Positions 3,199 to 46,962 are shown, counted from the first letter of the stretch. The stretch is 64,000 bases of DNA from an uncultured Pseudomonadota bacterium (GCA_902795435.1 CADBLE010000004.1:71601-135600), one strand, 5' to 3'. Program-made: numbers and translations. The notes: a model not told the origin generated them from the sequence alone.

Positions 3199-3209
3199 AT
3201 TTTATTCCT

Positions 3210-16337: not shown

Positions 16338-16338
16338 A

Positions 16339-16740
16339 ATGGTAAAATATGATTTGTTGAATTTTACTGTCCATGGTGATTACGAAGGATCACTTGTTGC
16401 ATTGGAAAAAGGTGCAGATTTTCCATTTGATATTAAACGTGTTTATTACATTTGGAACACAGATAAAAATGCAGTTCGCGGAAAACACGCACACCGTAAA
16501 TTAGAACAAGTTATTGTTTGTACATCTGGTTCATGCGATTTTATTTTAGATGATGGACACGAACGCACAACCGTTCATTTAGATAACCCTGCACAAGGTT
16601 TGCACATCAAATCAAATATATGGCGTGAATTTACAAATTTTTCACCAGATTGTGTCGTTATGGTGTTAGCCAGCGAACACTATGATGAATCAGATTATAT
16701 TCGCGATTATGATACATTTCTAAAAGAGATTGCAAAATGA
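16339..16740 (+). CDS. dTDP-4-dehydro-6-deoxyhexose 3,4-ketoisomerase (FdtA/WxcM-like cupin)
   Basis: 133 aa. HGDYEGSLVALEKG...KRVYYIW...RGKHAHRKLEQVIVC matches the FdtA/QdtA cupin pattern. Confidence 0.6.
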   Translation: MVKYDLLNFTVHGDYEGSLVALEKGADFPFDIKRVYYIWNTDKNAVRGKHAHRKLEQVIVCTSGSCDFILDDGHERTTVHLDNPAQGLHIKSNIWREFTNFSPDCVVMVLASEHYDESDYIRDYDTFLKEIAK

Positions 16741-17687: not shown

Positions 17688-17691
17688 TAAA

Positions 17692-18837
17692 ATGATAGAT
17701 AAAATCGCTATTGAACATTTAAACAAAATTAGTAAAGAGAAACTTCTGAGAAAAAACGGTTTGATTTGTTATACTTATAATGATGCTATAACAGATACGG
17801 AATATTATAACCCACAATGTATGAATATAGGTGATTATATTCAATCGTTGGCCGCAAAACAATTTTTTCATTCTATCGATGAGTTTATAGATAGAGACCA
17901 GCTTGGAGAATATAATGGCGAAAAAATAAATATGATATTAAATGCTTGGTATTTTATTTGGAAGAAAAATAAAGTTTTTTCTAAAAAAATTAGACCTTTA
18001 TTAGTGGCTGTTCATATAAATAATCCCGAAGGCGTAACGGAAGAAACAATAAAATATTTTAAAGAAAATGAACCTGTTGGATGTCGAGATTATCAAACAA
18101 GAGACTTTTTGTTGAAACACGGAGTTCAGGCCTATTTTTCGGGCTGTTTAACATTAACTCTTGGTGAAACATATAAAGTTTCTGAAAATAAAAGAAATGA
18201 TACCATTTATTTCGTAGATTATAAAATGGGAGATAAAAAAAATAAATTAATAGATGATAAGCTCAAGCAAATTATAAAAAAACATCCAAGAGGTAATATC
18301 CGTTATAAGACACACTTGTATCCATTAGATAAAGATTGTTTAGGGGCTTTATATGAAGCTGAGTGTTTAATCAAAGATTATGCCACAGCAAAATTAGTTA
18401 TAACACAAAACATACATTGTGCGTTGCCTTGTTTGTCTTTGGGAACCCCGGTGATACTTGTAATACCAGAATTTGATACAAAAAGGTTTTTAGGTATATA
18501 CAATATGTTTAATTATGTTGGTTTTAATGATCAAAATGAATTCTTATGCAATATAAACACAGATGATAATGGAAATATTGTAAATACAGACGAATATAAA
18601 AAATACGCTAATTTTTTAAAAGACATATGTATGAAGTTTATGCATATAGATAAAATACCAGGAATACATTGTAAAAAAGTATTTTTTAAATATCATCAAC
18701 TTGATACAAGAGAATATAAAATAAAACAATCGTTAAAGATTTTCAAAAGAATAAGAAACGGTAATAAACGAACAATTGTTTTATTTGGATTTATAAAAAT
18801 TCACTATACTAAAAAAGGGCATAAACATGGATTATAA
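17692..18837 (+). CDS. polysaccharide pyruvyl transferase family protein
   Basis: KLVITQNIHCALPCLSLGTPVILV resembles the PS_pyruv_trans core (ITTRLHxxIxAxxxGTPxIxI). The tracked start at 17557 overlaps the previous gene by 130 nt, so I trimmed it to the ATG at 17692, which has an AAAATG context. Confidence 0.5.
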   Translation: MIDKIAIEHLNKISKEKLLRKNGLICYTYNDAITDTEYYNPQCMNIGDYIQSLAAKQFFHSIDEFIDRDQLGEYNGEKINMILNAWYFIWKKNKVFSKKIRPLLVAVHINNPEGVTEETIKYFKENEPVGCRDYQTRDFLLKHGVQAYFSGCLTLTLGETYKVSENKRNDTIYFVDYKMGDKKNKLIDDKLKQIIKKHPRGNIRYKTHLYPLDKDCLGALYEAECLIKDYATAKLVITQNIHCALPCLSLGTPVILVIPEFDTKRFLGIYNMFNYVGFNDQNEFLCNINTDDNGNIVNTDEYKKYANFLKDICMKFMHIDKIPGIHCKKVFFKYHQLDTREYKIKQSLKIFKRIRNGNKRTIVLFGFIKIHYTKKGHKHGL

Positions 18838-19825
18838 ATTAACAATTATTATGTCTAATTATAATCAGGCAAACCTTATTGGTGGTGCGATAGATTCTGT
18901 GTTGATGCAAAAAACCAATTTCCCATTTCAATTGATTATCACAGATGATAATTCTACGAAAGACGATAGTGTAAAGATATTAAAACAATACGAAAAGAAA
19001 TATCCTGATATAATCAAAGTGTTATATAACAAGGAAAATGGACGCTATCTTAAAAATGTATTACGTGCCAAGGCAATTACTAAAACACCTTATTTTACTT
19101 TACTGGACGCAGACGATTATTGGACTGATGAAAATTATTTACAAAATGCGGTTGATTATTTAGATGCAAACCCAGACAAAGTGATATATGCACGTAATGT
19201 TGAATGTTTAGATGAATCTGGCAAAAAATGGTTGTTTATTCCAGAAAATACACCAGATGGTGATTTTACAATAGATGACTATTTGAATAACCACATTGTA
19301 ATTCCACAAACAACAGGTGGCGTATTCAGAAATGTTATTTTTGCACATGGTATCCCAAAGATTATGAGTGATGCCATTGGAACCGTTCACGAACGTTCAT
19401 TTGAAGGCGATTTTGACCGGTTTGTAATGCACCTTAAATATGGTGGTGCACATTTTGAAAATAAAGTATCTGGGGTTTATCGTGTTTTATCAAGTGGCAT
19501 TTGGTCGCGTATGAACACATTTGAAAGACATGTAATCCAGGCACAAACATTGATTGATTACAATGAATACTTTGAACATAAATATAATGATTTTTTTATA
19601 AAGTCTGCGTGGGGTGCATTAAATGTTGCGATGGATTTTATTAAACAACCACAACCAAATGCTACTTTTTCGGTTGAGTCGCAAAATGCGTTTTTTAGTG
19701 CTTTGACAGAATGTATGAAAAACACTGATTTATTGGTACAAAAGCCACAAAAATTAAAAGACAAAATTCGATTGAAAATTTATACAAAATTACAAAAAAA
19801 ATTGACTAGCAAAGGATTGATATAA
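18827..19825 (+). CDS. glycosyltransferase family 2
   Basis: N-terminal GT-A pattern: LTIIMSNYNQANLIGGAIDSVLMQ...LIITDDNSTKDDS...LDADD. Confidence 0.7.
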   Translation: MDYKLTIIMSNYNQANLIGGAIDSVLMQKTNFPFQLIITDDNSTKDDSVKILKQYEKKYPDIIKVLYNKENGRYLKNVLRAKAITKTPYFTLLDADDYWTDENYLQNAVDYLDANPDKVIYARNVECLDESGKKWLFIPENTPDGDFTIDDYLNNHIVIPQTTGGVFRNVIFAHGIPKIMSDAIGTVHERSFEGDFDRFVMHLKYGGAHFENKVSGVYRVLSSGIWSRMNTFERHVIQAQTLIDYNEYFEHKYNDFFIKSAWGALNVAMDFIKQPQPNATFSVESQNAFFSALTECMKNTDLLVQKPQKLKDKIRLKIYTKLQKKLTSKGLI

Positions 19826-19826
19826 A

Positions 19827-20900
19827 ATGAAACATCCAAAATTTTCTATAATTTGTCCGGCTTTTAATCATGAAAAATATGTTGCTTGGTTTATAGACAG
19901 CGTATTGGCACAAACTGTTTCCGATTGGGAATTGGTTATTGTTGATGATTGTTCGTCTGATAATACGGCAAAAATTATAAAATCTTATGCTGATAAACGT
20001 ATCAAATTTATTCAACATAAAATCAATGGTGGAATAAATGCCGCAATAAATACTGGGGTTGAAAATGCATCTGGGGATATATGGGTTATGGTCGCATCTG
20101 ATGATGTTATGTATCCAAACGCATTGGAAAAGATTGGCGATGCCTTTGATAGTAATCCAAACACAGTTGCGGTTTATTGCAATCTGGATGTGATAGACGA
20201 AAACAATAATCCACGAACAGATGTTGTTATGCCAGAATTAAAAAATCGTTCGCGTGCTTCCTTTTTGCATGATGCTTTTATGTATGGAAATATCCTTTAT
20301 GGACCGGGAATGTCAATGCGCGCAAAGGTTGCAAAAAATATGTTCCCTGCCACACCTGCAAATTGCATATACCAAGATTACATTCAAAATATTCAATTGT
20401 TGATAATGGGTGATGTTTTTGTATTGCCAGAAAAAGTTATAAAATATCGTGTTACGCACGATCAAAAAAATATAAGTGCCGCTGGATTTTCCACACAAAT
20501 GCGTTGTATTTTGGAAACAGACAGTTTGATGGACACTTTTTTTGATATCAAAGATGTTGACTTATTAAAAGATATGTTTGAAAAAGAAATTAAAGAAACA
20601 GGTATAACCATTAAAAAATCTGGCGATATAAAATATTTTCTGGGGCGTATGGCAATGTTGTCACACAATGATGCACGCAAAACCTGGGGTTTTCATCAGA
20701 TAATGGAATCTTACAATGTGGATAGAACAAGACTTTTCAAAGAGTATGATTTTCAATTTCGTGATTTGGTCGCTTTGGTAAAATTATTTCAGCCATCTGA
20801 ATATGCACGAAAATACAAGAAATATAAAAATCTTTTCAATTTAATGCTTGTTGTATCTGTAATGTTATTATTAACCAGTATAATTGGAGTAATATTATGA
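19827..20900 (+). CDS. glycosyltransferase family 2 with a C-terminal TM
   Basis: GT2 signature [25 protein letters not shown]...[12 protein letters not shown]...ASDD, with a hydrophobic C-terminus. Confidence 0.7.
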
Positions 20901-21982
20901 TTAAATTTTTAGATCTTGAAAAAATAAATAACCGTTTTCGTGGTGAAATGGATGCCAGAATCAAAGATGTATTAGATTCTGGTTGGTATTTGTCTGGTAA
21001 ATGGAATGATGAATTTGCAAAACATTTTGCAGAATTTTGTGGGACAAAACATGCCGTTGGTGTGGCAAACGGTTTGGATGCAATAAACCTTATTATTCGT
21101 GGTTATGGTTTTGGTATTGGCGATGAAATAATTGTGCCGGCTAATACTTATATTGCGACAATATTGGCAATTTCTGAAAACGGTTGCACACCAGTCTTGG
21201 TTGAACCAGATATAAACACATACAATATTGACCCAGAAAAAATTGAAGAAAAAATCACATCACGAACAAAAGCAATAATAGTTGTTCATCTTTATGGTCA
21301 GGCTGTCCAGATGGCAAAAATATGGGAATTGGCAAAGAAATACAACCTGAAAGTCATTGAAGATGCAGCCCAGGCGCATGGTGCAATGTATAATGGAAAA
21401 CGTGTTGGTAACCTGGGTGATGCGGCAGCGTTCAGTTTTTATCCTGGCAAAAACCTTGGGGCACTTGGTGATGCAGGTGGTGTTACAACAAATGATACTG
21501 AATTGTTTGAAAAAGTTCATGCCATTGCTAACTATGGTTCCGACTATAAATATCATCATATTTATAAAGGGGTTAATTCACGCCTTGATGAAATTCAGGC
21601 GGCATTATTGGATGTTAAATTACCTTATCTTGATACCGATAATACACGTCGTCGTGAAATAGCAAAATATTATCGTGAAAACATCACGAATCCTAAAATC
21701 ATATTACCAAAAACATACGACGAAAATGCACATGTTTGGCACGTGTTTGCTGTCAGATGTGAGAATCGTGATGAATTATGCAAATATTTAAATGATAATG
21801 GTGTACAAACAAATATTCACTATCCAACCCCACCACACAAACAGGGTGCATACAACGAATGGAATAACCAATCTTTTCCAATTACAGAAGAAATTCATCA
21901 CACAATAATGTCTTTGCCAATGTCACCAGTGATGACAGATGATGAAGTAAAACAAATTGTTGATTTGGTAAATAAATTTTAA
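20897..21982 (+). CDS. DegT/DnrJ/EryC1/StrS-family PLP-dependent sugar aminotransferase (FdtB-like)
   Basis: 361 aa. ...[13 protein letters not shown]..., the DAAQAHGA motif and ...[20 protein letters not shown]... with the PLP-binding Lys. Confidence 0.8.
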
Positions 21983-21985
21983 AAA

Positions 21986-22012
21986 AAGGTGGTTTTATAC
22001 CACCTTTTTTTT
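21986..22012. terminator. bidirectional intrinsic terminator (aggtggtttt-ataccacct)
   Basis: taaaaaaaggtggttttataccaccttttttttatg lies between the convergent aminotransferase gene and the tail-fibre-like gene. Confidence 0.6.
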
Positions 22013-22514
22013 ATGCACAAAGTCCGCTTACCTGCCAACGCGCTCGTAATGATACCTCTTGTCCTGAACCATATCTACTACTTAGCATAAATCCTGTTGT
22101 TGTTTTGCTGTTTCTCTTTGTAAAAACCCAACCCCATGCGTTGATAGAATCTGTTGGTTCGTTCATAGCAATTATGTGATAATTTGTATCTGCCATTGTT
22201 ATAGGCAATGTTATTATATTACTGTCTGATGAATTTGTAGAAACCAATCCACCCATTTCAACCCAACCAGATTTGTATTTACGATACCATGTGTAATTGT
22301 TTTCCGCCGTTGGAAATTGTGATTCAACAACATAATCTGCATTGGTTAAATCTGGGATTTCGCTTTGTTTAGCCAACACAGTTCCACCGACTGTTTCACC
22401 ATCATGGACACGCAGTGTTTTATTTGTTATATCCATGGTCACTTCACCGATTGCACCAGTAAAATTATCATTTTCAGATGCGGTTCCGCGTCTGATTTGT
22501 ATTTGTCTTGACAT
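22011..22514 (-). CDS. phage tail-fibre N-terminal domain protein (Mtd_N-like), probable prophage remnant
   Basis: The N-terminus MSRQIQIRRGTASENDNFTGAIGEVTMDITNKTLRVHDGETVGGTVL matches the conserved IQxRRGT...GE..xDTDT..L.vGDG.T.GG start of phage tail fibre / major tropism determinant proteins. At 167 aa it is short, so it may be a fragment. Confidence 0.5.
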   Translation of the reverse strand: MSRQIQIRRGTASENDNFTGAIGEVTMDITNKTLRVHDGETVGGTVLAKQSEIPDLTNADYVVESQFPTAENNYTWYRKYKSGWVEMGGLVSTNSSDSNIITLPITMADTNYHIIAMNEPTDSINAWGWVFTKRNSKTTTGFMLSSRYGSGQEVSLRARWQVSGLCA

Positions 22515-22833: not shown

Positions 22834-24678
22834 TTAAATCTTTCTGCCCCTTTCCTGTTCTGTTTTTATGCGTTCCAATATTGCTTTATATTTTTCACGA
22901 CCATTTACCAATGCCATCTCAAATTCGTGTCCCAATTCGCTATCAGAACCCGCAACCAATTGTTTTACAGTTGGAATTGTTCCATTATCTAACGAATTTC
23001 TGATTCCATTTATAATGGCATTTTTTTCCATTTTAACCATTATTTTGCCTTCGTCCGACATACCAATTTCACCACTGGTTCCAATATAAGACATGTGTTC
23101 TTCCAGATTTCTGTTTTGACCAATTTCTGGGATAATAAAAACATTTCCCAATTTATCTGGGAACCATGCAACACCTTCTTTGAATAACGGACGCCCCAAC
23201 AATTCAAACAAATTATAATATTTACTGTTAAAATCCATTGCGGAACAAAAACTGATAAATGTAGATTTTGATACACCCAATGGACAATATGGCGCAAACC
23301 CAACACAGTATAATTGTTTTTGGATATCTTTCATTTCTTGTTTCGTATATCCCAATATTGCCATTTTTTCCTGCATCATTTCTTCCAATTTCAAGAATGT
23401 ATATCCGCCATGACAATGTGCAAAAATATTCAGATTTCTGATATATCTTTTTGCCAATTCAACATCTATTTTTTTGCCGTCTTGGGATATACGTGGCAAA
23501 ATTGCTATATCAAATAATTTTTTGATATACCTTGGGTTTGTTTGTTCGGGTGAATCATTATCAAATTTTTTCCTAAGGATATATCTTTCCACCCTGAGTG
23601 AAACCAACGCATGTAATCTGCGACGACCTTTTTCAAAAGCCATTCTCATACGGGCATGACCATCATTAAATGAATATTTTACATCTTCTGGCTCACCAAA
23701 ATCATATACAACACTGTAAATTCCTATATTGTCTTGTAATCCATTTGTATCCAACAGATATTCAATACTTTTCATATATCCACTTGCTTTTTTAGGGTCA
23801 TCAGCACCATTTCCGCCCAACACCAAAACACTTACTTCGTCTATTGGAATTTGTTCTACACTCTGGTATCCATATTCGTTTTCTAAACTCTTTTCTACCC
23901 TTTTTGCAATTTCAACATTACTGCGTAAATCTTCTACATCATTAAAAACACGTGCAATAACTTTTTTCTGGTGCGGATTTATTATGTCTGTTCTGGTTTT
24001 TATCTGTTTCAATATTTTTGCACTGCGTTTTTTGTATTCTGGAAAATTATATAATCTGACTGTCAAATTTATTATATTATCTGCCACTTCTGTATCCAAT
24101 GATGCCGATAACAAAGCAACATTTATCATTTCAAACAGATTATCTATGACAGAATTATCTATATTCAAAACAAAATTATTTTCATTGTGAAATTTTAACA
24201 ATTTAGAAATTCGTATAATACTGGAACCAGTATTCAGATAATCAAAAATTTGACTTAAATATAATTTCTTTTTAATTCCACCAACACTCTGTGCAATTAA
24301 ATACAAAAAAGATAAATTTTTTTCAGAATATTTTTTGTTTAATTCTTCATATATTTTGTTAAACACATAATCAGATATTTCTGGATATTTTCCAACAGCC
24401 AACAATAACGTTTTGTTATTTATAACAACTTCATAATTATTCAACATAAATTTGAAAGATTCTATTGCTTCGTCTTTCGGCAATTTTTCAAGAATTTTGA
24501 TGTATAATTTCGTCACATCTGGCAAAACATCATTATTACAATAATTTACAAACGCCAATCTGTGTAATTCTTTGTAAAAATTATCCAAAACATCTGAAAT
24601 ATCAGATTCATCAACAGAATCTGACATTTTTATTATCAAATCATTAAAATATAAATAATTATCTAAATCTTTGCTCAT
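22834..24678 (-). CDS. large orphan protein; possible alpha/beta-hydrolase-like enzyme with a Cys nucleophile elbow (AHCHGG); effector-like
   Basis: 614 aa with no signal peptide, a helical N-terminal half, and a C-terminal half carrying VLVLGGNGADDP and NIFAHCHGGYT (Sm-x-Nu-x-Sm). It lies beside tRNA-Thr. Confidence 0.4.
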   Translation of the reverse strand: MSKDLDNYLYFNDLIIKMSDSVDESDISDVLDNFYKELHRLAFVNYCNNDVLPDVTKLYIKILEKLPKDEAIESFKFMLNNYEVVINNKTLLLAVGKYPEISDYVFNKIYEELNKKYSEKNLSFLYLIAQSVGGIKKKLYLSQIFDYLNTGSSIIRISKLLKFHNENNFVLNIDNSVIDNLFEMINVALLSASLDTEVADNIINLTVRLYNFPEYKKRSAKILKQIKTRTDIINPHQKKVIARVFNDVEDLRSNVEIAKRVEKSLENEYGYQSVEQIPIDEVSVLVLGGNGADDPKKASGYMKSIEYLLDTNGLQDNIGIYSVVYDFGEPEDVKYSFNDGHARMRMAFEKGRRRLHALVSLRVERYILRKKFDNDSPEQTNPRYIKKLFDIAILPRISQDGKKIDVELAKRYIRNLNIFAHCHGGYTFLKLEEMMQEKMAILGYTKQEMKDIQKQLYCVGFAPYCPLGVSKSTFISFCSAMDFNSKYYNLFELLGRPLFKEGVAWFPDKLGNVFIIPEIGQNRNLEEHMSYIGTSGEIGMSDEGKIMVKMEKNAIINGIRNSLDNGTIPTVKQLVAGSDSELGHEFEMALVNGREKYKAILERIKTEQERGRKI

Positions 24679-31503: not shown

Positions 31504-32073
31504 ATGAAATTCAAGTTACTTTACTATGGCGACATTTTAACAAACCCGAAAAAACGCGCCCAACATATCGCGGATATTCGTATGCAATTTCACCCTCAAT
31601 TAAAGAAATTGCTAAATTTCCAACCATGGAACAATTTGTCTAAATTTATGATGCCAGACGCCATAAAAAGCCCGATTATAACCCGTCATATCGGCGGCAT
31701 AGATTTCAATCCAATCATTACATCAAATCTGAAAATGATTGCAGAATTAGACATATTGTTGATGCACCCTGAAATTGTCGGTGTTCCACGTTCAGACATA
31801 GATAACCGCGTTAAAACAATATTGGACGGCCTGCGTTGCCCACAAAACGAACACGAAATCGGTCAAAATACACCACATGATGTTGGACCAATCTATACTC
31901 TGTTAGACGACGACCATTTGGTTACAAAATTGACCGTCAACACCAGCCACCTATTATCAACAGATATGTTCCCAGAAAACGCAAAAACGTCCCCAGATTC
32001 AGTTTTCATGCTGATAGACGTGAATGTAAGGGTTACAGAAGGAACACTTGAAAACCTGCCATTTATGGCTTAA
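31504..32073 (+). CDS. hypothetical protein
   Basis: 189-aa ORF that I do not recognise. A hairpin terminator follows. Confidence 0.4.
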   Translation: MKFKLLYYGDILTNPKKRAQHIADIRMQFHPQLKKLLNFQPWNNLSKFMMPDAIKSPIITRHIGGIDFNPIITSNLKMIAELDILLMHPEIVGVPRSDIDNRVKTILDGLRCPQNEHEIGQNTPHDVGPIYTLLDDDHLVTKLTVNTSHLLSTDMFPENAKTSPDSVFMLIDVNVRVTEGTLENLPFMA

Positions 32074-32191: not shown

Positions 32192-33397
32192 TTATGGCAA
32201 ATTGGTTTGTTCCGGTGCACTGAAACGCCAACCACGGAATGTTTGACCTTTCTTGGTTGCCGCTTTGACTGGCGTACGTACATCTTCGCCATACGTTGCG
32301 GTACCCGCATTGTTTGCGGATATATCCGCCGCACTTGCATCAGACCAATTAATGTTAATAACATTTGCCTCACACATGGCTGGACCCGATTCAATAGCCC
32401 CGAACATCGCAGCACGGAACGCGAGGTTGGTCGAACCCGTGTACTGCACGTTGCTCGCACAGTAGCTAGCGCAGCTGCCACTGCAATTCCACGCGTCGTG
32501 GAAGTCGGTGTAGAACACCCAAGGGGAGAGCACCGCTTGCATGTTGCCACTTCCATCTTTATATCCGGTTACATTACAATAACAATATTGTGCCCCCGTT
32601 TGACCCGTTTCATCCGTTAAATTTGATGTTATTGTTGGGTTTGTCCATGTATAACTATTATTATCACCTGCCTGTGTAGAACAACGACCCTGACCAACCA
32701 ACACACCCTTTGACGAACCATAATCAACCGCCCATGTGTTATTATCGCTTATGCCATAATATGATTGTCCATTTGATGCGCTTTCAATGAATAAACCACT
32801 GTTATTTACAAATGCACTGTTTTCACCCCTACCGGTACCAATTGTAGATGTTAAATTCAATCCCTGTTTCAAATGCCAACCGTTCACGCATGCCGTTGGT
32901 TCACATGTATCGGTACCGGCACCGTAATAATCATTACCAGATACCGCCGTTGCGTGCGCGATATTTGTGAATGATGTTCCCATATTATTTATATCACATG
33001 CACGATAACATTGTGTATCTGATGATGCACCGTCTGCGGAATTTGCATAGCCCGTTGGACATGTTTGTATACCCTGTGGCGTGGTTTGATTATATTGGAC
33101 ATTACCACTGATTCCCGGGCAAAACGAGCCCGCCGGACATGTTATTACGGTTTCAGAATCTGCAGGCAAATATTGTCCCGCGTTTACGATATAATCTATG
33201 ATATCGTATTCCGCGACCGCGTTTACGGTGCCTTCGTATACACTATCCATATTGTCTGCAGTTGCCGCATTGGTATATGTATAATCTTCCTGCATATAAC
33301 CGTCATTTGGGAATGAGTCGGTATGACTTGGTTCTGCAATTGCCGGTGCAACAAAGCCCATTGCAAGCGCGCTGGTTAAAAAGATTTTTTGTGACAT
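32192..33397 (-). CDS. Sec-exported cysteine-rich, Gly/Thr/Ser/Asn/Tyr-rich protein encoded by a GC-rich, compositionally foreign gene
   Basis: Signal peptide MSQKIFLTSALAMGFVAPAIA|EP. The mature part has about 22 Cys in paired arrangement. Its GC content is visibly much higher than its neighbours, enough to spawn spurious antisense ORFs. It has its own upstream hairpin terminator at 33421-33440. Confidence 0.55.
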   Translation of the reverse strand: MSQKIFLTSALAMGFVAPAIAEPSHTDSFPNDGYMQEDYTYTNAATADNMDSVYEGTVNAVAEYDIIDYIVNAGQYLPADSETVITCPAGSFCPGISGNVQYNQTTPQGIQTCPTGYANSADGASSDTQCYRACDINNMGTSFTNIAHATAVSGNDYYGAGTDTCEPTACVNGWHLKQGLNLTSTIGTGRGENSAFVNNSGLFIESASNGQSYYGISDNNTWAVDYGSSKGVLVGQGRCSTQAGDNNSYTWTNPTITSNLTDETGQTGAQYCYCNVTGYKDGSGNMQAVLSPWVFYTDFHDAWNCSGSCASYCASNVQYTGSTNLAFRAAMFGAIESGPAMCEANVININWSDASAADISANNAGTATYGEDVRTPVKAATKKGQTFRGWRFSAPEQTNLP

Positions 33398-33655
33398 GGT
33401 TACTCCCTTCTTTTCTTTTTTTTAACAAGAAAACCACCATAAACATTTGGTGGTTGGAGGTTAGTAACAATTAAAACAGAAATTGTGCCGTTTATTTATG
33501 TATATCACGACCCTCCAACCATAATTGAAGTTGGAGGCATTTTTCGTCTGCTTTACGACGCTGTTTTAACCGGGTTACTACACCCCACCGATAAAAATTC
33601 TTATCGACATTTTTATCATAGCAATTTTAGAAAAATTTTTACAAGTAAATTTTAT

Positions 33656-34726
33656 TTACATCAAAACGGCGGTGATTTGTTCCTGCATTTGGAAAGTACC
33701 CAGAACTATCCACCCAATGATAATAGACACCAATATAATACCAATACTATTCAGAACACTGGATATAGATTCCATACGGCGAACTGATTCTTCCATATAA
33801 TCTTTCGCGATATCGTCCAGATTTTGTGCAAAATCGTTCATATCTGAATAAATCATTAAATCGCCAACGATTTCACTGTTTGGAAAATCTTTGCCCGTCA
33901 ATGCCAGCGCAGAACCCAAATTTTCACCGTTTGCAATATGATGCAGGGTTTCTTCTAATATATTTGATAAATATCTGTTTGATGAATCCATCAACAAACG
34001 CAACGCATCTGGTACCGATACCCCCGCAGACACCATTGCCGCCAATGACATCAGCCAACCAACAGATGTTTGTAATTTATAAATATTCCATGGTGGTAAT
34101 TTATCAAATAAAGTTCTGAGCCGTCCCGTCCATATTGGCAAAGATAACCATACAACAGATATCAAACCGACCAAGCCCGCTGCGAATACATACCAATATT
34201 TATTTGCGAAATCTGATACCCATATCAGGGACGCCGCCGTGCCACGCCATATAATATCACTGCCCGCGGCCTGGGCCAATGGTGGAACCAAATATATTCC
34301 AACCATAATAATTATACCTATTGTCAATAAAAACAAAAATAACGGATATGCCAACGCAGACCACATTGCGCGTTTAATACGCCTTATTCCGCCGACAACA
34401 CGCGATACATTTTCAAGTGAAACCAATAAACTGGACACATTACCAGACATCAACAGCAATGTTTCTTCGGTTGGAACCCAACCACGTGTGGCCTCACTGA
34501 AAGTCATACCTTTTTCCAGGTTTTGTTGAATTTCACGCATTGCGATTGCAAATGGTTCATCTGGTTTTCGGCCGTCAAATGATTCTATCATTTCAATACG
34601 GTGCAACGCGTCCATCAATGTAAAATTATTACGCAACAGAGATGCGATTTTTCTTGAAATCGCCATACGTTTATCAGTATTTGTTCTAAAAACCAGTTTT
34701 GCATACAGCAAATCTAATTTAGTCAT
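33656..34726 (-). CDS. type IV filament inner-membrane platform protein (GspF/PilC/TcpE/PilR family)
   Basis: 356 aa with two T2SSF-like repeats (…LMDALHRIEMIES…GMTFSEATRGWVP… and …VPDALRLLMDSSN…GENLGSALALTG…) and three TM segments. Confidence 0.7.
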   Translation of the reverse strand: MTKLDLLYAKLVFRTNTDKRMAISRKIASLLRNNFTLMDALHRIEMIESFDGRKPDEPFAIAMREIQQNLEKGMTFSEATRGWVPTEETLLLMSGNVSSLLVSLENVSRVVGGIRRIKRAMWSALAYPLFLFLLTIGIIIMVGIYLVPPLAQAAGSDIIWRGTAASLIWVSDFANKYWYVFAAGLVGLISVVWLSLPIWTGRLRTLFDKLPPWNIYKLQTSVGWLMSLAAMVSAGVSVPDALRLLMDSSNRYLSNILEETLHHIANGENLGSALALTGKDFPNSEIVGDLMIYSDMNDFAQNLDDIAKDYMEESVRRMESISSVLNSIGIILVSIIIGWIVLGTFQMQEQITAVLM

Positions 34727-34729
34727 CTT

Positions 34730-36370
34730 TTAATACACCCATGGTCTGTCTAATAAACCAACCCTGTCTTCCAATTCATCAACACCGATAATACCACGCA
34801 ACATCAATTCAGTTGCAGATTCTTTCAATGTTCGGCCATTCATTTTTTCAAGCCAATATTTAACCGCACTTTCTGTTTCCCCCGCCAGCGCAAGTGATAA
34901 AAATTCACTGTTTGTGATAATGATTTCACCCGCCTTGACACGACCGATTGTTCCGGTGCCATTACAATATTCACAACCAACCCCACGAACATAGGTTTGT
35001 GCCAAACCTAAATCACCCAATGTTTCGCGAACACGGTTATATGACGGATGATTTCTTTTATCTAATAATCTTTCACGACAATGCGGGCATAATTTCTTGA
35101 ACAAACGCATAGAAACCAAACCGCGCATCATTGTTTCATCTTTCAATTTGAATGCTTCAACCCCCATATCCAACAAACGGGTCAATGCACCCATCGCAGA
35201 ATTAGCATGCAAAGTTGTCCAAACATTATGACCAGACAACGCGCCCTTGACCGTCAATTGTGCCGCAGATAAAGTTCTGATTTCACCGACCATCAATGTA
35301 TCAGGGTCGCTTCGCAAAGCAGCGGCCAGGGCTTCTGTAAATTTTTCTTCACGTTGTTCTTCGTTTGCAGTATTTACAACCGGCATTTGATGTGCGCCGA
35401 AAATCTTTTGTTCTGCAGGATCTTCCACAGTAATAAGATTTATTTCATATCTTTTTTCTTTCAACATCAACGCCATATTGCGAACCAATGTCGTAGATTT
35501 ACCAGATGATGTAGGCCCCGCAACAACAACCAATCCCGTTGGTGCAGAACGTAATCTCATCAATAATTTTTGTTCGTATTCGTTAAATTCTTGTTCTGTT
35601 TTTATACCTTCACTTGGGTTATCATACAGCAGACGCATAACCACATATTGTGAACCAAACGCAATTGGATTAAATTGCATACGAATACCCAATACACCAT
35701 TTGGCAAATATAAATCTTTTGTTCCACGTAATGGTGTGCGACCATCTTTCTGGGCGGTTTGATATTCATTTTGTGCATAACTTGAATTAGAAATATCAGC
35801 CGACGCAAATGCCGCACGAACGAAAGATTCACCCCATTGTGAATTATATTCCAGAACCGGTTGCATACTGCCGTCTATACGAAAATAAATTGTTGTTTGG
35901 TCTGCAACTTCTATGTGAATATCAGAAACCTTTTGTGATGCAGCACGTGCGATAATATCAACAAAATCTTTCTGCATCTGGTTATCATAATCCGGTCGCG
36001 CATGTATTCCACCAACCCTTTCATCATTGTATTTGTAAATATTTGATATCAACCCTAAATCAGAATAAAAAGGTTGCTTCATCAATCTGTTTTTTTGACG
36101 CAATAAATCTATAAACGCAATAACACGACCATCATATCTGTGTGTTCTGGAAATAATAATTTCGCCACTTGAAAAATAAGCAATCAAACTCTGTGTGTCT
36201 TTCGGCAAAGCCAATTCACCCGCAGAAGATGTCAATAATCTGTTTTTATTAGAAAACAAATAATCTATGATATCTTTACCATTTGCATTTTCAAGACCCG
36301 TCGGAATTGACGGTTTTGATGAAACATCATTAAAAACTTTATCGTCTTTTTTTGGCATATTATTTTCCAA
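34730..36370 (-). CDS. type IV filament assembly ATPase (GspE/PilB/TcpT/PilQ-R64 family) with a C4 zinc motif
   Basis: Walker A AGPTSSGKSTTL, Asp box and Walker B TLMVGEIR, His box TTLHANSA, the N2 domain DIHIEV...IYFRIDG, and a tetracysteine CPHC...CEYC. Confidence 0.8.
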   Translation of the reverse strand: MENNMPKKDDKVFNDVSSKPSIPTGLENANGKDIIDYLFSNKNRLLTSSAGELALPKDTQSLIAYFSSGEIIISRTHRYDGRVIAFIDLLRQKNRLMKQPFYSDLGLISNIYKYNDERVGGIHARPDYDNQMQKDFVDIIARAASQKVSDIHIEVADQTTIYFRIDGSMQPVLEYNSQWGESFVRAAFASADISNSSYAQNEYQTAQKDGRTPLRGTKDLYLPNGVLGIRMQFNPIAFGSQYVVMRLLYDNPSEGIKTEQEFNEYEQKLLMRLRSAPTGLVVVAGPTSSGKSTTLVRNMALMLKEKRYEINLITVEDPAEQKIFGAHQMPVVNTANEEQREEKFTEALAAALRSDPDTLMVGEIRTLSAAQLTVKGALSGHNVWTTLHANSAMGALTRLLDMGVEAFKLKDETMMRGLVSMRLFKKLCPHCRERLLDKRNHPSYNRVRETLGDLGLAQTYVRGVGCEYCNGTGTIGRVKAGEIIITNSEFLSLALAGETESAVKYWLEKMNGRTLKESATELMLRGIIGVDELEDRVGLLDRPWVY

Positions 36371-37037
36371 TGTTTATATTTTCTTCTTCACCATCTTTTT
36401 CAAACACAATTCCGTCATTCAAAGAAATACTTTTTACAACATAGCCATCAATTTGTTTACCAACACTGACGCGTTTATTTTGACCACTTGAAATTTCTTC
36501 AATTGTTGCCTGTAATTGGTTACCAACACCAATAACATTTACCAATTTATAGTTCTTTGATAAACCACCTTCTGCAACTTTCTTTTGTTGTTTTTCTTGG
36601 ACAACAACTTCTTCTTCATCTGGTTGTTCCAATTGGCGTTTTAATTTTTCTGTTTGTGCTTCTAATTGTGCCTTGGTTGCTTCTAATTCTTGCTGCTGTT
36701 GTTCTGCACGACCAGACAAAGTATCCAATTCCATTTGAATTTTCAATTTTTCAGCATTTAATCTTTCCAATTCTAAATCAAGTTGCGCCCTTTCTTTTTC
36801 AAGTTGCATAACAACCTTTTCTTGTTCTAATGCTGTTATTCTTTCAAACAAAGAACCACTGACTTCGTAATTATTTAATGCATCGGCAGACATTTGGTCG
36901 GCTGTTTCTTCTGTAACAACAACTTCTTCTTCAATAAAATCTTCTGAAAAAGATGGGACAGAAAAACCGAATATAACCAAAATAGATAATAATATTTTCT
37001 TCATCTTATTTTTCCTTTTTTTATTTTGTATAAACAA
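36360..37037 (-). CDS. periplasmic coiled-coil protein with a C-terminal beta domain; PilP/GspC-like secretin-interacting candidate
   Basis: Signal peptide, a long Q/E-rich coiled coil, and a C-terminus KLVNVIGVGNQLQATIEE...VSVGKQIDGYVVKSISLNDGIVFEKDG that resembles PilP/GspC HR-like domains. Confidence 0.35.
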   Translation of the reverse strand: MFIQNKKRKNKMKKILLSILVIFGFSVPSFSEDFIEEEVVVTEETADQMSADALNNYEVSGSLFERITALEQEKVVMQLEKERAQLDLELERLNAEKLKIQMELDTLSGRAEQQQQELEATKAQLEAQTEKLKRQLEQPDEEEVVVQEKQQKKVAEGGLSKNYKLVNVIGVGNQLQATIEEISSGQNKRVSVGKQIDGYVVKSISLNDGIVFEKDGEEENINIGK

Positions 37038-38301
37038 TTACTTCGTAATTCCATGTTCTTGTGTTTGCGTTCCAATTTACAGATGTCATATAAACACCAC
37101 CAAATTCATTAAACACATTCATAAATTCAGATGGTATCATTTTTGATGATGCAGAAACTTCTATTACATTTATTTTTTCTGTTTCTTCGCCATTTGATAT
37201 CGTGTCTGAAACACCGTTTATGTGTAATTTAGTGTTTATCTTTTGGAAATTAGTTGTAATATCACGCATGGCTGTAACCTGGTCGCGTTCGTCCAAAGAA
37301 GAAATTGTTTTTATTTCAGGTAACATAACACGAACCAACACTTCATTTTCAGATAATTGTTGAACAACTGCACCAGGAAACAATTCAGAACCAATTTCAT
37401 AAAAACCATTTAATGTCCCAAAATCGCGTTTGAATGTAGCGGTTACATATTTTTCATCACATTTTGTATATGTTTGGTTCCACCCAGATATTGGTTGCAT
37501 AACAAAAGCAATCGCTTTATAACACAAATTTGCGCGTTCCATAACATCTGGCAAATGTTCGTATGGACGATTTAATGGTTCAATTTCTTTTTTAACAATA
37601 TTGAATTGTTTGTCCAATTCTTTATTTTTCAATTCAATTTGACGTTTATATTCAGCCGCCAATTCAGGGTCTATATTTGCATGTTTGCGTGGCATAATAC
37701 TTTTACCCATTGGTGAATACAAAACAGATGCAACCGCCGCTACAAAAAGAACAATAAAGAATATAGACGGTAACAAAGATTTTACAATACTGATATTACG
37801 TAATCTGGCAATATTGTTGTTTTGGATAATATCTGGTAAAAATTTTTCCTGGGAACGTGGCATTCCCCAAGATGCTGGTGCAAACAAAGCACCCCAATCA
37901 GGAATGTTTGATAATTCAGTATAAATTTCACGTGCGCTTTTTTCAGATTCTATCAAAATATCACGAATAATAATTCCATTACGCACCGCAACCAGATAAA
38001 AACCATTATCAGTTTGGAAAACACCCAAAAACGAAATCAAATCTGCAAAATTATCAACAATTTCCGCAGCCGCACTTGGCATAGAAAAATATGCACCATT
38101 TTTGCCATTGGTTAAACCAACCATAGATTTATATTCTGTAAACAGCGTATATTTTGTATTTTTAGCCAGTTGTCTTGCATAATTAAATGCAGTATTACCA
38201 ACACTGACAGGTTGCCAAAACAGGCCTGTCGCATATTTTTTATGATGAACAGTTATGGTTTGTTTAATCATTCTCTCTTCTGTGTTGATATTATAACACA
38301 A
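37021..38301 (-). CDS. bitopic inner-membrane assembly protein, GspL/BfpC/PilO(R64)-like candidate
   Basis: 426 aa with a cytoplasmic domain of about 190 aa, a central TM (LLPSIFFIVLFVAAVASVLY) and a periplasmic domain of about 210 aa. This is the same topology and size as GspL-type ATPase anchors. It is the first gene of the apparent operon. Confidence 0.3.
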   Translation of the reverse strand: MCYNINTEERMIKQTITVHHKKYATGLFWQPVSVGNTAFNYARQLAKNTKYTLFTEYKSMVGLTNGKNGAYFSMPSAAAEIVDNFADLISFLGVFQTDNGFYLVAVRNGIIIRDILIESEKSAREIYTELSNIPDWGALFAPASWGMPRSQEKFLPDIIQNNNIARLRNISIVKSLLPSIFFIVLFVAAVASVLYSPMGKSIMPRKHANIDPELAAEYKRQIELKNKELDKQFNIVKKEIEPLNRPYEHLPDVMERANLCYKAIAFVMQPISGWNQTYTKCDEKYVTATFKRDFGTLNGFYEIGSELFPGAVVQQLSENEVLVRVMLPEIKTISSLDERDQVTAMRDITTNFQKINTKLHINGVSDTISNGEETEKINVIEVSASSKMIPSEFMNVFNEFGGVYMTSVNWNANTRTWNYEVIVYTK

Positions 38302-38361: not shown

Positions 38362-38673
38362 TTATTTTTTACATTTATAAACTTTTGCTTTGACCTTAAA
38401 CGTGTTTTTCGGTCCAAATATAGCACCTTCGTTTTCCAGTGTTTCTTCGCCTGTGATATAGTAAGTATCCCCCAGACCGTCTTGTTCAATTATTCTTTTT
38501 TCAAGAAATTCATACGCATCTTTTACATTGTAAGAAGTCATTGTTGTATCAACATTATACAAATATTCACAATTTTTTGGTTCACTGGTCAATCTGACAA
38601 TACCATTATTTTGTTCAGGTACCGTTGTTGCACACGCGCCCAAAATTAAAGACAGTAATACTAATTTTTTCAT
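38362..38673 (-). CDS. small lipoprotein (hypothetical)
   Basis: MKKLVLLSLILGACAT lipobox. It has its own terminator at 38335-38362. Confidence 0.4.
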   Translation of the reverse strand: MKKLVLLSLILGACATTVPEQNNGIVRLTSEPKNCEYLYNVDTTMTSYNVKDAYEFLEKRIIEQDGLGDTYYITGEETLENEGAIFGPKNTFKVKAKVYKCKK

Positions 38674-38870
38674 TTTTTCCTCCCTTTTTCTTTCAATTTA
38701 GATTCTAAAACTACACATGAAGCACCCAGCCCCAAAAACATTATTTCAATTAAAAACACATAAAAAGTTCCTAACAAATTATTTTCTACAAAATAATCTG
38801 TTATTTCAAAAGCAACAACCAATAAAAAATACCAACCAAACCAGATTAAATTTTTTTGCCATCTTTTCAT
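38670..38870 (-). CDS. small two-TM membrane protein (hypothetical)
   Basis: 66-aa ORF overlapping the start of the downstream lipoprotein gene by 4 nt. Confidence 0.3.
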   Translation of the reverse strand: MKRWQKNLIWFGWYFLLVVAFEITDYFVENNLLGTFYVFLIEIMFLGLGASCVVLESKLKEKGRKK

Positions 38871-43631: not shown

Positions 43632-44246
43632 TTATAAAAAACACTTTCTTAAACTTTCACCAGTGTCGTTTTGGTCAATGCGTTTATTACGGATTTCTTC
43701 TTCTGCTTTCAGGTGTTGTTTCAATAAAATTATATCAGGATGCGATTGTAATTCTTCATTTAATTTATCAACCGCGGAATCTATTTCTTTTTGTTCCCTG
43801 ACAAATATTGGTGTGATAGAAATTGCCGCAGATTTCAGCGATTTTTCCAATAATTCTTGGTTATCATCTATGACTGATAAATATGCACGAATATGTTCGT
43901 CTTCGTGTGATAAAACCGCATTATAAGAACAACTGTTTTTTTTATGTGATAAATCAATTTGCACCAAAAAATCAGAATATCCAATTGTTGCATCAACGCG
44001 TTTTAATGCGACACAAAAACCGTCTTCTATTGATGTTATATCGGTTGTTAATTCATAATTATCAACCATAGTTGCAATAACATCACCATGTAAAACATCC
44101 ATTTTTTGTAATGGTTGAACAACCTGTTTTGACCAAGTTGGTGTTTTTATATTTATATCTGGATTTAATTTATAACTAAGGCAATCATCAGCCAAAACCA
44201 AATTTGGTAACAAACAAAATACAAAAAGCAGAATTTTTTTCAACAT
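43632..44246 (-). CDS. secreted putative Zn-dependent peptidase (HExxH; DUF922-like)
   Basis: Signal peptide MLKKILLFVFCLLPNLVLA, a single HEDEH motif (LSHEDEHIRAY), and a location directly downstream of virB4. Confidence 0.4.
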   Translation of the reverse strand: MLKKILLFVFCLLPNLVLADDCLSYKLNPDINIKTPTWSKQVVQPLQKMDVLHGDVIATMVDNYELTTDITSIEDGFCVALKRVDATIGYSDFLVQIDLSHKKNSCSYNAVLSHEDEHIRAYLSVIDDNQELLEKSLKSAAISITPIFVREQKEIDSAVDKLNEELQSHPDIILLKQHLKAEEEIRNKRIDQNDTGESLRKCFL

Positions 44247-44249
44247 ATA

Positions 44250-46664
44250 TTACATTGTTTGTTTTTTCAGATATTCTTCAACAAAATTATTTCCATAATT
44301 TCTGTATAATTCTTCGGCTAATAATACAGAAGAACGACCCGATTCAAACAAACGCAACATATTACCCAATCCGCCTAATTCAGTATTCAAAATTACAGAT
44401 TCACCATTTACAGGACGCGATAATAATACCGCACGTTTCAGATTTGGATATGCTTTGCCCTGGATAAATGCCATTTCAAGTGGATTCAGATTCCATTTTT
44501 CATAATCGCTTAAATCAGCCGCAGGATTACGGAAGAATAATACTGTTTGTGCCTGGCCACGGACAACATCACCAATTCCAAGTTTATCCAAAACATTTGC
44601 ACGTTGGAAAGAAACCATGTATGCCTGGCGATTTTTACGACCTTCTTGTAAACCGGCTATGAAATTATCACGGAACATTTTGTTTTCAAGCATAGGTGCA
44701 GTTTCGTCAATCATAATCAAAGATGGATTTCCACCAGATACAGTTGTGTTATTTATTCTGTGCAAGATATAAGATATAACTGCAGGTGCTAAAATTTCAT
44801 CTTGCAAAATATCTGTAAAATCAAATGTTGTTAAACGCGCGTTCAAATCAAGTGTATCTTCTGTTTCATTGAAAATATCACCATATTGTAATGGGTCTAT
44901 CCATTTTTTCAATTCGCCACGCATTGTTCCTTCACTTGAAAAACAACTTTCATACAGATTTTTCAATAATCTGTCTTCGTCTTTCAAATAATCAAAATTC
45001 ACAGATACAGCACGTGCAATTTCATCACTTGATAAAACATCACTTTGACCCGTAATCATTGCAAACCAACGTCTTAAAAATGCACGATTTGCCGCCGTAT
45101 CAGGCATTTTTAACGGATTTAAGTGTGTTAAAAATACATCTTGTTTTGCGTCTTTTTCTTTACCGTTCATGGTTATATATTTACCATCAACAGCCAGAGT
45201 AAATATTTCAGCACCCTTGTTTCTATCAAAGAAGAACGCTTTTAACTTTTGATGTCTCAGAGATTGTGCAATAAGGAACGAGAACAAAGTTGTTTTACCA
45301 CCACCGGTTGGACCAATCGTCAATGTATGGCCCACCGCAGCCGGTTTATCAGAAACATGAAATTGAAATTGATATGGTGTTCCCTGGGCAGTTGGGAATA
45401 TAACCAATGGACCATTTCCCCAATCGCTGTTTTCAACACCGCGTGGCATAGAAGACAAAGGTATACTGACCGCGGCGGTTTTTGATAACATACTGAAACT
45501 GCGTGGAAAAATATTAAATCCAGGAATCAAAGAAAAGAATGATGCCTTGGCTGCAAAATTTTCAACCACAGGTGCGACACCAAAAGACGCAGATATTTTC
45601 TTTAATTCAGAAACATTTTTTTCAAGTTCGTCTTTATTATAACCAAATAATATAAACAATGGATAATAATCAACCAATGTTTGTGCACCAGTTATATTTT
45701 CATCCATAGATGATTGTGCCTGTTCAATTTGTTCTATTGTTGAATCTTCTGTTTCATCTGTAATTGTTGATTTATGCTGATTTAACAGAGTTTCTATATC
45801 ACTGGATTTCAAAATATGAAATGCATTCATACAAATCATTTCACATTGTATCGTTGATACACTGTTGAAAAATTCTTCGTCCATAAAATCAGGTGCAGAT
45901 TTAAACGAAACCAAAGACGCATAATATGTTTTATCGCCACTTGAATATTCAATAATTCCATTTTTATTAAAAGATACATTATCAACCGCGACTTCATCAG
46001 AAATATTATTATCGCATTTTTTTATAATTGGTTTTGTAACCGGTGATAATATACGACCAAATAAAGTCGCCATGTTATTAAAACTGTCATGTTTTAATAA
46101 TACAGGTTTATACACAGATAACATAGATTCTATGTAATTAGAATAATGTAATATTTTATCATAATTATTTGCGCCACTTACAGATATCACAACATAATAA
46201 CTGTTATTAAATATCTGTAATCCCTGGTTATTCCATTTATCATAAATTTTTTGCAGTGTTTTTTGATGAAATTCATAATTTGTTTTTTCGTCTACTTTAT
46301 CACGAATAGTATAAAAACGAATATGAACAGATGGATCTTGGATTTGATTAAATAATTGTGCACGCAAATCCAGTAATTTTCCACGATTATCTTCGTCCAT
46401 ATTACTTGTTTGAACACCGTTTATTTTATAAGCACGCGCCAAAGAACCATCTGTCAAAGATATAATATCATCTTTATAAACACCCTTGAACGGTAAATAA
46501 TCGGAATATTTCGCATAACCGAATTCAGGTAATATTTTTTTTGTTATTGCCGGTATATAAGCTAACAAAATAATAAAAACTAATAAAATTGACATAGCAA
46601 TAATAACCAATGTCAATGCCATTGAATTAGAATTTCCTGCAAAATAATTAAATAAATATTCCAT
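44250..46664 (-). CDS. virB4: type IV secretion system ATPase VirB4/TrbE family
   Basis: 804 aa with Walker A TLTIGPTGGGKTTLFSFL, Walker B LIMIDETAPML and N-terminal membrane segments. A virB3-like gene lies 1 nt upstream. Confidence 0.8.
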   Translation of the reverse strand: MEYLFNYFAGNSNSMALTLVIIAMSILLVFIILLAYIPAITKKILPEFGYAKYSDYLPFKGVYKDDIISLTDGSLARAYKINGVQTSNMDEDNRGKLLDLRAQLFNQIQDPSVHIRFYTIRDKVDEKTNYEFHQKTLQKIYDKWNNQGLQIFNNSYYVVISVSGANNYDKILHYSNYIESMLSVYKPVLLKHDSFNNMATLFGRILSPVTKPIIKKCDNNISDEVAVDNVSFNKNGIIEYSSGDKTYYASLVSFKSAPDFMDEEFFNSVSTIQCEMICMNAFHILKSSDIETLLNQHKSTITDETEDSTIEQIEQAQSSMDENITGAQTLVDYYPLFILFGYNKDELEKNVSELKKISASFGVAPVVENFAAKASFFSLIPGFNIFPRSFSMLSKTAAVSIPLSSMPRGVENSDWGNGPLVIFPTAQGTPYQFQFHVSDKPAAVGHTLTIGPTGGGKTTLFSFLIAQSLRHQKLKAFFFDRNKGAEIFTLAVDGKYITMNGKEKDAKQDVFLTHLNPLKMPDTAANRAFLRRWFAMITGQSDVLSSDEIARAVSVNFDYLKDEDRLLKNLYESCFSSEGTMRGELKKWIDPLQYGDIFNETEDTLDLNARLTTFDFTDILQDEILAPAVISYILHRINNTTVSGGNPSLIMIDETAPMLENKMFRDNFIAGLQEGRKNRQAYMVSFQRANVLDKLGIGDVVRGQAQTVLFFRNPAADLSDYEKWNLNPLEMAFIQGKAYPNLKRAVLLSRPVNGESVILNTELGGLGNMLRLFESGRSSVLLAEELYRNYGNNFVEEYLKKQTM

Positions 46665-46665
46665 T

Positions 46666-46962
46666 TTATACTACCAATTTTCCCGGTATTCTGCTTTTAA
46701 GAATTCTGAAACTTGAAAATATTATTTGCGCTATTTGTGGTTCTTTTTTTGAATAAAACGCCAAAATACTGTGTGATAAAAATAATAAACCAATAAAAAC
46801 CAGTGGTGTTATCATTGGTATATCCTGGGTTGTTATCAAAAAAACAATCATTACAGCAACAAATAATAAAAACCAAAACAAGAAATTCAGCATAGCAAGA
46901 TTATAAGCCACATAAAATATGCGTGGTGGATTTGCCAAAGCCTTTAAAACACGTTGTTTCAA
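46666..46962 (-). CDS. virB3: type IV secretion system protein VirB3/TrbD-like
   Basis: 98 aa with two TM segments, ending 1 nt before the virB4 start. Confidence 0.6.
   Translation of the reverse strand: MKQRVLKALANPPRIFYVAYNLAMLNFLFWFLLFVAVMIVFLITTQDIPMITPLVFIGLLFLSHSILAFYSKKEPQIAQIIFSSFRILKSRIPGKLVV

Follow-up and report, generated by a model that had tools for sequence, protein, structure and literature searches.

We analyzed a stretch of 64,000 nucleotides of DNA (one strand, 5′ to 3′) from an uncultured Pseudomonadota bacterium (GCA_902795435.1 CADBLE010000004.1:71601-135600), referred to here as the window. A model reading the sequence alone had predicted that positions 32,192 to 38,301 hold a compact type IV filament module together with a gene for an exported cysteine-rich protein, and the five minus-strand open reading frames (ORFs) of this original prediction are all present at the coordinates that it gave. 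Gene calls on near-identical public contigs place the likely starts of three of them slightly downstream of the earlier ones (PilO-like, 38271; PilP-like, 37004; ATPase, 36358). With the revised starts the gaps between the four pil genes are only 1-16 bp, and we therefore treat these genes as a single operon. The hairpin terminator predicted after the platform gene was also recovered. The parts of the putative assembly machine, including one encoded far from the operon, are the following (lengths in amino acids, aa):

37021-38271, minus strand: PilO2/BfpC-type bitopic inner-membrane assembly protein, 416 aa from the likely start (426 aa in the earlier ORF, which extends to 38301)
36360-37004, minus strand: PilP-family periplasmic protein, 214 aa from the likely start (225 aa in the earlier ORF)
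34730-36358, minus strand: extension ATPase of the PilQ(R64)/BfpD/GspE class, 542 aa from the likely start (546 aa in the earlier ORF)
33656-34726, minus strand: polytopic inner-membrane platform protein of the PilR/BfpE/GspF family, 356 aa
33432-33455, minus strand: terminator-like hairpin ending the pil operon, found by a consensus scan (8-bp stem with 4 GC pairs, T-rich tail)
3210-4565, minus strand: divergent outer-membrane lipoprotein secretin, BfpB/PilN-like, 451 aa, 30 kb from the core operon

The four genes had been predicted to encode, in order, GspL-, GspC-, GspE- and GspF-type proteins, and the family assignments agree with this: PF06864, TIGR03021 (in orthologues), T2SSE with a tetracysteine motif, and T2SSF. 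In particular, profile searches placed the 426-aa and 225-aa proteins in PF06864 and TIGR03021 and not in unrelated families. The 426-aa ORF matches Pfam PAP_PilO (PF06864) over residues 24-363 (E=3.8e-12; 46.2 bits versus a cut-off of 26.7), and its product consists of a cytoplasmic actin-like N-terminal domain, one transmembrane segment at approximately residues 160-185, which is the only hydrophobic segment of the protein, and a periplasmic C-terminal domain. In tblastn searches it aligned over 98% of its length, at 21-24% identity, with plasmid genes annotated as "type 4b pilus protein PilO2". A profile built from Enterousia orthologues (see below) and two plasmid PilO2 sequences matched the PDB entries 4bz0/4byz (PilO2Bp N-terminal domain, 6e-11) and 3vhj (BfpC, 9e-10), which supports the earlier description of a GspL-like bitopic protein. 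The structures of the PilO2Bp N-terminal domain and of BfpC are actin-like folds (PMC3984277).

The PilP-like protein is encoded directly after pilO, its canonical position. Alignment of orthologues revealed a signal peptide, a variable acidic linker, a conserved coiled coil of approximately 80 aa, a second variable linker and a conserved C-terminal beta domain, in that order, and all 32 orthologues scanned matched the NCBIfam model TIGR03021 (pilP_fam), with a best E-value of 2.5e-11. The BLASTP match between the window's PilP and plasmid PilP was marginal (E=0.008), and a PilP profile retrieved only coiled-coil noise from the PDB sequences. The ATPase was assigned to Pfam T2SSE (E=3.6e-66, 223.8 bits), and its best annotated plasmid relatives are type IVb pilus (T4bP) ATPases and bfpD, which are 32-35% identical to it across more than 90% of its length. 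It has a Walker A motif (GPTSSGKS), a Walker B motif, a His box and a tetracysteine motif (CPHC-x34-CEYC), and these elements, with the last as CxxC-x34-CxxC, are kept in 80/80 orthologues. The database annotation of this protein as TadA, of the Tad/Flp class, is not supported, as the TadA-family model reaches only E=1e-11 over the P-loop core, the tetracysteine typical of GspE/PilB is present, and the platform is a single two-domain protein of the GspF type. This platform protein contains two T2SSF stretches (Pfam, E=1.6e-26, 93.2 bits) and three hydrophobic regions, and it also matches GspF, ComGB and PilC models.

The gene order was also as predicted, that is, like pilO-pilP-pilQ-pilR of R64. 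The same order is found in annotated plasmid clusters of Bordetella and Bosea, which run PilN secretin, PilO2, PilP, ATPase, GspF-family protein, major pilin, PilT-like ATPase and PilV; the order PilN-PilO2-PilP-ATPase-PilR is the R64 thin-pilus variant (PMC3984277). Judged by sequence, the four genes are the chromosomally fixed core of a type IVb pilus of the class formed by the R64 thin pilus and the bundle-forming pilus (BFP).

A secretin candidate 30 kb away had been noted in the original prediction, and the 451-aa protein encoded there turned out to be a true secretin, an identification that rests on transitive profile homology, profile-profile alignment with hhalign, and structure. The protein carries a lipobox, VYGC, as read from the sequence. 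When 1.8 billion representative proteins were searched with a profile, 132 relatives were recovered, and Pfam Secretin (PF00263) was above threshold in 10/10 of the distant relatives tested, with a TcpQ domain in one of them as well. In hhalign comparisons, a shallow alignment of the 451-aa protein gave a probability of 1.3% against Bordetella PilN, and the deepened alignment gave 94% against the Bosea T4bP secretin (E=1.4e-7, 242 columns). The AlphaFold2 (AF2) model computed from the deep alignment had a pLDDT of 89.9, and a Foldseek search of the PDB with it returned the T4bP secretin BfpB first (9u5s_A, E=2.5e-10). All of the top 13 matches were secretins, those after BfpB being PilQ, ExeD, InvG, EpsD and pIV, with PilQ of the V. 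cholerae competence pilus in second place. The neighborhoods of three more distant secretin relatives (L084, L085 and L087) were not informative: L084 is a different type IV pilus-like cluster, and L085 contains ankyrin-like small genes and not pilins.

The secretin gene immediately precedes lolCE, whose NCBIfam score of 412 bits exceeds the cut-off; lolD comes next (window positions 1222-4565, minus strand), and this adjacency is kept in a relative with a 40%-identical secretin (L091, 7835-11158). LolCE and LolD form a lipoprotein-release ABC transporter, and the adjacency may reflect a functional link of secretin lipidation and sorting to the Lol system.

The source lineage is Candidatus Enterousia of the order Rs-D84, an uncultured alphaproteobacterium of gut and rumen. 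The window's ATPase has thousands of close homologues among gut metagenomes, and we drew our sample of orthologues, 80 loci, from a scan of species-representative genomes. Most of these loci originate from metagenome-assembled genomes of rumen, horse, chicken, human, termite and millipede, and they include one complete chromosome, 716,531 bp long; the names attached to the loci are "Alphaproteobacteria bacterium", "Rickettsiales bacterium" or Candidatus Enterousia. Genomes of Rs-D84 are smaller than 1 Mb, with a high coding density and no accumulation of pseudogenes (mSphere 2025, PMC12306168). According to the same study, these organisms lack respiration, standard transporters and the synthesis of amino acids, nucleotides and lipids, have incomplete glycolysis, and are predicted to live as partner-dependent obligate symbionts or parasites; type IV pili are mentioned there for another lineage only, and none for Rs-D84. 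The earlier description of a reduced intracellular genome is therefore accurate as regards reduction, given the genome sizes in the lineage, while a gut and rumen habitat with predicted partner dependence does not establish intracellular life.

The block lpxK-lpxC-lipoprotein gene (103 aa)-pilO-pilP-pilQ-pilR, followed by a convergent gene for a 189-aa protein and by gyrB, was present in every locus long enough to show it among 81 loci. Identity to the window across the 81 loci, and the ratio of nonsynonymous to synonymous substitution rates (dN/dS) relative to the closest relative, were as follows:

ATPase: identity 77-98%, dN/dS 0.027
PilR: identity 64-97%, dN/dS 0.049
PilO: identity 46-91%, dN/dS 0.069
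PilP: identity 43-81%, dN/dS 0.23
GyrB: identity 81-99%, dN/dS 0.019
LpxC: identity 51-97%

No integrase or relaxase was found near the module. Conserved synteny together with low dN/dS indicates a functional, vertically inherited module, as opposed to a decaying remnant or a recent mobile element. The first of these alternatives, a non-functional vestige of a lost pilus system, had been raised in the original prediction and would be compatible with the lack of a visible pilin or peptidase in the window and with the dispersed and highly divergent secretin. It is contradicted by the purifying selection on all four pil genes (dN/dS 0.027-0.23), and also by the finding that all ORFs examined are intact, by the retention of the ATPase motifs in 80/80 orthologues, by ATPase identities of 77-98% where LpxC falls to 51%, and by the high coding density of a lineage in which pseudogenes do not accumulate (PMC12306168). 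We regard it as extremely improbable.

Alternatively, the genes could derive from an integrated conjugative element or an IncI-like plasmid, in which case the thin pilus would stabilize, or would once have stabilized, mating pairs for a nearby type IV secretion system. Pili of the PilO2 type are indeed typical of conjugative plasmids and of integrative and conjugative elements (ICEs), and a VirB4 ATPase gene and a VirB3-like gene lie 6 kb away (44250-46962). However, lpxC/lpxK and gyrB flank the module in all 80 species, and neither an integrase or relaxase nor a tRNA-bounded island is present; identity to the plasmid homologues is just 21-35%; the pil genes are under selection comparable to that on housekeeping genes; and the secretin is encoded separately, linked to lolCE-lolD even in the relative with 40% identity. 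The fixed flanks, the low identity to plasmid proteins, the selection and the Lol-linked secretin all argue for ancient vertical inheritance rather than a recent mobile element, and we consider a mobile-element remnant quite unlikely. As for the neighboring genes themselves, the minus-strand region 44250-46962 encodes an 804-aa VirB4-family ATPase, whose match to TIGR00929 (E=1e-114) stays below the cut-off, and, ahead of it in the VirB3 position, a membrane protein of 98 aa; type IV secretion genes are thus located 6 kb from the pilus operon. A 204-aa protein with a signal peptide and no family is encoded after virB4, at 43632-44246.

Two further genes of the conserved block adjoin the core operon, one on each side. 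Upstream of pilO we found:

38362-38673, minus strand: conserved small lipoprotein, 103 aa, directly upstream of pilO

This gene lies between lpxC and pilO in 78/81 loci, and its product, at 34-93% identity, has a lipobox and two invariant Cys residues in the alignment. No Pfam or NCBIfam family was matched, even when 25 orthologues were scanned, and the protein may be an accessory factor, pilotin-like or TcpQ/PilL-like. Between it and lpxC there are about 200 bp (38670-38870, minus strand) with a hydrophobic ORF of 66 aa; in the closest relative (L001) this stretch is missing and the two genes are 17 bp apart. On the other side, the 189-aa protein (31504-32073, plus strand), encoded convergently to pilR, has no Pfam or NCBIfam match and is 71-98% identical across the lineage with a dN/dS of 0.02, which is tighter than PilO, PilP and PilR.

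The fifth gene of the original prediction is located between pilR and the gene for the 189-aa protein:

32192-33397, minus strand: Cys-rich protein, predicted to be Sec-exported, 401 aa

Its leader, read by eye, is of the Sec type (MSQKIFLTSALAMGFVAPAIA|EP), and no class III leader was found on the protein. The gene encodes 14 Cys residues and has a GC content of 45.6%, versus 34% in the window. Horizontal acquisition of the gene on the ground of its GC content was considered and dropped, as the excess is partly due to an Ala/Gly/Thr-rich composition. The distance from pilR to the 189-aa gene is less than 130 bp in 47 of the 69 loci that span this site, leaving the Cys-rich gene absent there, while cargo at the site in other loci includes Cys-rich ORFs of 294-844 aa, a porin-like gene, restriction-modification genes and helix-turn-helix genes. 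In the closest relative the 401-aa protein is 61% identical while the flanks are 97-98% identical, and its dN of 0.29, compared with 0.006-0.09 in other genes, corresponds to evolution approximately 10-30 times faster than that of its neighbors. All 379 members of the family that could be detected are from this lineage. Several occur per genome (for example, locus tags IKZ49_00825, IKZ49_01095, IKZ49_03080 and IKZ49_04785; several share the same longest-contig size), and many are on short contigs. Longer members contain the InlB B-repeat (PF09479), and there is a weak Flg_new/InlB B-repeat match at the C-terminus of the 401-aa protein.

The variability of the site, the fast divergence and the multi-copy family together suggest that this is a variable exported or surface protein in an insertion hot spot, and not a pilin or a dedicated substrate. 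The gene had been predicted to occupy the place of a pilin or secreted substrate, an idea that is contradicted by its absence from the site in 47/69 loci, its dispersed paralogues and its lack of a class III leader; the conserved machine does not include the 401-aa gene. Some further features of the hot spot deserve mention. Cys-rich ORFs in two other loci (L017, 12778-13662; L056, 12046-13095) have (CA)n runs near their 5′ ends, translated as THTHTHTH, which suggests slipped-strand phase variation of these ORFs. An A9 tract (33413-33421) lies just upstream of the ribosome-binding site of the 401-aa gene. In two human gut loci (L070 and L075, 12.8-15.1 kb), DNA methyltransferase-like and restriction-like genes are found at the site with no Cys-rich gene, indicating that the site between pilR and the 189-aa gene accepts diverse cargo.

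The existence of the Cys-rich family bears on another possible function of the module, that of an exporter resembling the type II secretion system (T2SS), in which a short periplasmic pseudopilus would push folded Sec-exported proteins through the secretin, with the Cys-rich proteins as candidate substrates. Proteins such as TcpF and CofJ are exported by T4b pili. The lineage has a large family of Sec-exported Cys-rich proteins, one of whose genes directly follows pilR in a subset of genomes; the ATPase scores slightly higher with the GspE model than with the PilB model (223.7 versus 200.2 bits); PilO2/BfpC and PilP are structural counterparts of GspL and GspC; and secreted proteins are reported to interact with T4b pili (PMC6048534). 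However, the window's proteins fall in the T4bP-specific families PF06864 and TIGR03021 and not in GspL or GspC, the best structural match of the secretin is BfpB, and such an exporter would still need pseudopilins, none of which were seen in the DNA examined. Moreover, genetic linkage to the machine is lacking, given that most genomes do not have the Cys-rich gene at this locus and that its paralogues occur at scattered sites. We consider an exporter of this kind unlikely.

We therefore favor, with reasonable confidence, the interpretation that the window encodes a working type IVb pilus assembly machine, composed of the ATPase, the platform, PilO2, PilP and the BfpB-like secretin, that would serve contact with other cells. 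The sequence data establish the homology of all five parts, the canonical order of the genes, their conservation across 80 species and the purifying selection on them, and the steps of the mechanism we infer from homologous systems. A hexameric ATPase of the PilQ/BfpD type would dock on the actin-like domain of the PilO2/BfpC-type protein and on the GspF-family platform PilR. ATP hydrolysis would then drive the platform, so that pilin subunits are lifted from the inner membrane and added to the growing filament. The coiled coil of PilP would span the periplasm, with its C-terminal beta domain contacting the N0 domain of the secretin, and the filament would exit through the BfpB-like lipoprotein secretin.

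Several observations weigh against this interpretation. The match of the window's own 225-aa ORF to TIGR03021 (E=3.5e-5, 24.8 bits) is under the cut-off of 34.65. The 451-aa protein has no direct match in Pfam, NCBIfam or the PDB sequences, and a first AlphaFold model of it, made from 35 close orthologues, had a pLDDT of only 34. Strict and relaxed regular-expression scans for leader peptides and listings of hydrophobic N-termini found no prepilin-like ORF in the 64-kb window, in the 80 loci with 10 kb on either side, or in the 10 kb past the window's right end, and neither a minor pilin nor a retraction ATPase was found in the same DNA. The scan of the loci did recover PilV of Bosea as a control. 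No A24 prepilin peptidase was detected among the window ORFs scanned or in the other DNA examined. The DNA in which these missing parts were looked for amounts to approximately 8% of one genome. Finally, the production of a filament, its composition and its binding target we can only infer, and its most likely role, attachment to partner or host cells, purely so; the filament may also serve the uptake or export of macromolecules.

As regards the window, these scans agree with the original prediction, which had found no prepilin peptidase, pilins or pseudopilins there. In PAPI-1 and Burkholderia Tfp7 the peptidase is likewise encoded elsewhere (PMC3984277). A 213-aa ORF at 554-1195 (MKNKQNHIYG|IIGLC...) was considered as an atypical pilin and rejected, because Glu5 is lacking and a bitopic membrane protein is the more plausible reading.

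A pilus of the competence type, taking up DNA or other macromolecules to scavenge nucleotides, would suit organisms that are without nucleotide and amino-acid biosynthesis and standard transporters (PMC12306168), and the competence PilQ of V. cholerae is second among the structural matches of the secretin. However, ComEA, ComEC and a retraction ATPase were not seen in the region examined, and the components belong to T4bP families and not to those of Com or type IVa pili. This function seems very unlikely to us.

A bolder reading would be that this domesticated machine, with its detached and highly derived secretin, is the principal organelle of Rs-D84 for cell contact or nutrient acquisition, either with very unusual filament subunits that escape class III searches or by exporting the hypervariable Cys-rich proteins. 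We find this doubtful, though we give it some weight. If true, it would be key to how abundant uncultured gut bacteria parasitize partner cells. Candidatus Enterousia/Rs-D84 occurs widely in gut metagenomes (rumen, horse, chicken, termite and human), and a pilus core conserved as strongly as GyrB in so small a genome is a concrete, testable candidate for a host-interaction apparatus. The case also illustrates that a "thin pilus" of the plasmid/ICE type can become a fixed chromosomal organelle and that a secretin can diverge past detection by Pfam with its fold kept. The hypervariable Cys-rich family provides a second lead, toward surface variation.

Other features of the window are worth reporting. 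The plus-strand cluster at 15171-21982 encodes glycosyltransferases, an FdtA-like isomerase, a pyruvyl transferase and a DegT aminotransferase, and is a surface polysaccharide or O-antigen-type locus, kept in a genome of less than 1 Mb together with lpxC, lpxK and pagL. A 167-aa protein with a phage-type Mtd_N (major tropism determinant N-terminal) domain (E=1.8e-12) is encoded at 22011-22514 on the minus strand, adjoining a tRNA-Thr gene and the gene for a 614-aa protein without family (22834-24678, minus strand). A diversity-generating retroelement around the Mtd_N protein was looked for and rejected, as there is no template/variable repeat pair. At 6107-7891 (plus strand), an FtsA-like N-terminal part and a complete ribulose-phosphate 3-epimerase domain (residues 386-577) are joined in a single ORF, which reflects either fusion of ftsA with rpe or a stop or frameshift that was missed between them.

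We compared the module with known systems. With the T2SS it has in common an ATPase, a platform, a bitopic actin-like adaptor, a periplasmic connector and a secretin, as well as the GspE-type tetracysteine of the ATPase. In contrast to the T2SS, its accessory proteins belong to T4bP families, with no matches to the GspL, GspC or GspM families; the scores with the T2SS equivalog models were far from the cut-offs (GspE, 223.7 versus 630; GspF, 66.8 versus 424); and leader scans of the window and the loci found no GspG-K pseudopilins. Conserved linkage of the 401-aa Cys-rich gene to the machine, as would be expected for a gene in the TcpF/CofJ or PilS position, was not found either.

The closest resemblance is to the R64, PAPI-1 and Burkholderia Tfp7 systems (pilL-pilV), which have PilO2, PilP, a PilQ-type ATPase and PilR in the same order, and the window's secretin is a lipoprotein, like PilN. 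Unlike the systems of this type, the module is chromosomal, amid housekeeping genes, rather than on a plasmid or ICE, and is only 21-35% identical to the plasmid proteins. Its secretin gene is 30 kb away beside lolCE-lolD and encodes 451 aa, compared with about 560-595 aa; its PilP has a long conserved coiled coil; and the locus is without pilS, pilV, pilU, pilT, pilL, pilM and a shufflon. With the BFP of enteropathogenic Escherichia coli the module shares a BfpC-like N-terminal domain (3vhj, 9e-10), a BfpD-like ATPase at 32-33% identity, and a secretin whose best structural match is BfpB, also a lipoprotein secretin. It differs from BFP in that a bfpA-type bundlin, the BfpP peptidase, the BfpF retraction ATPase and minor pilins are not adjacent, in that a PilP-family protein replaces BfpU, and in that it is not plasmid-borne.

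Saccharibacteria, which are also partner-dependent and have reduced genomes, retain type IV pili, presumably for contact. T4b pilins are reported for predatory Bdellovibrio (PMC5430801). The filament subclass and the phylum differ from those of the Enterousia module. Like these bacteria, Enterousia would be an organism with a small genome and a dependence on other cells that has kept a type IV filament.

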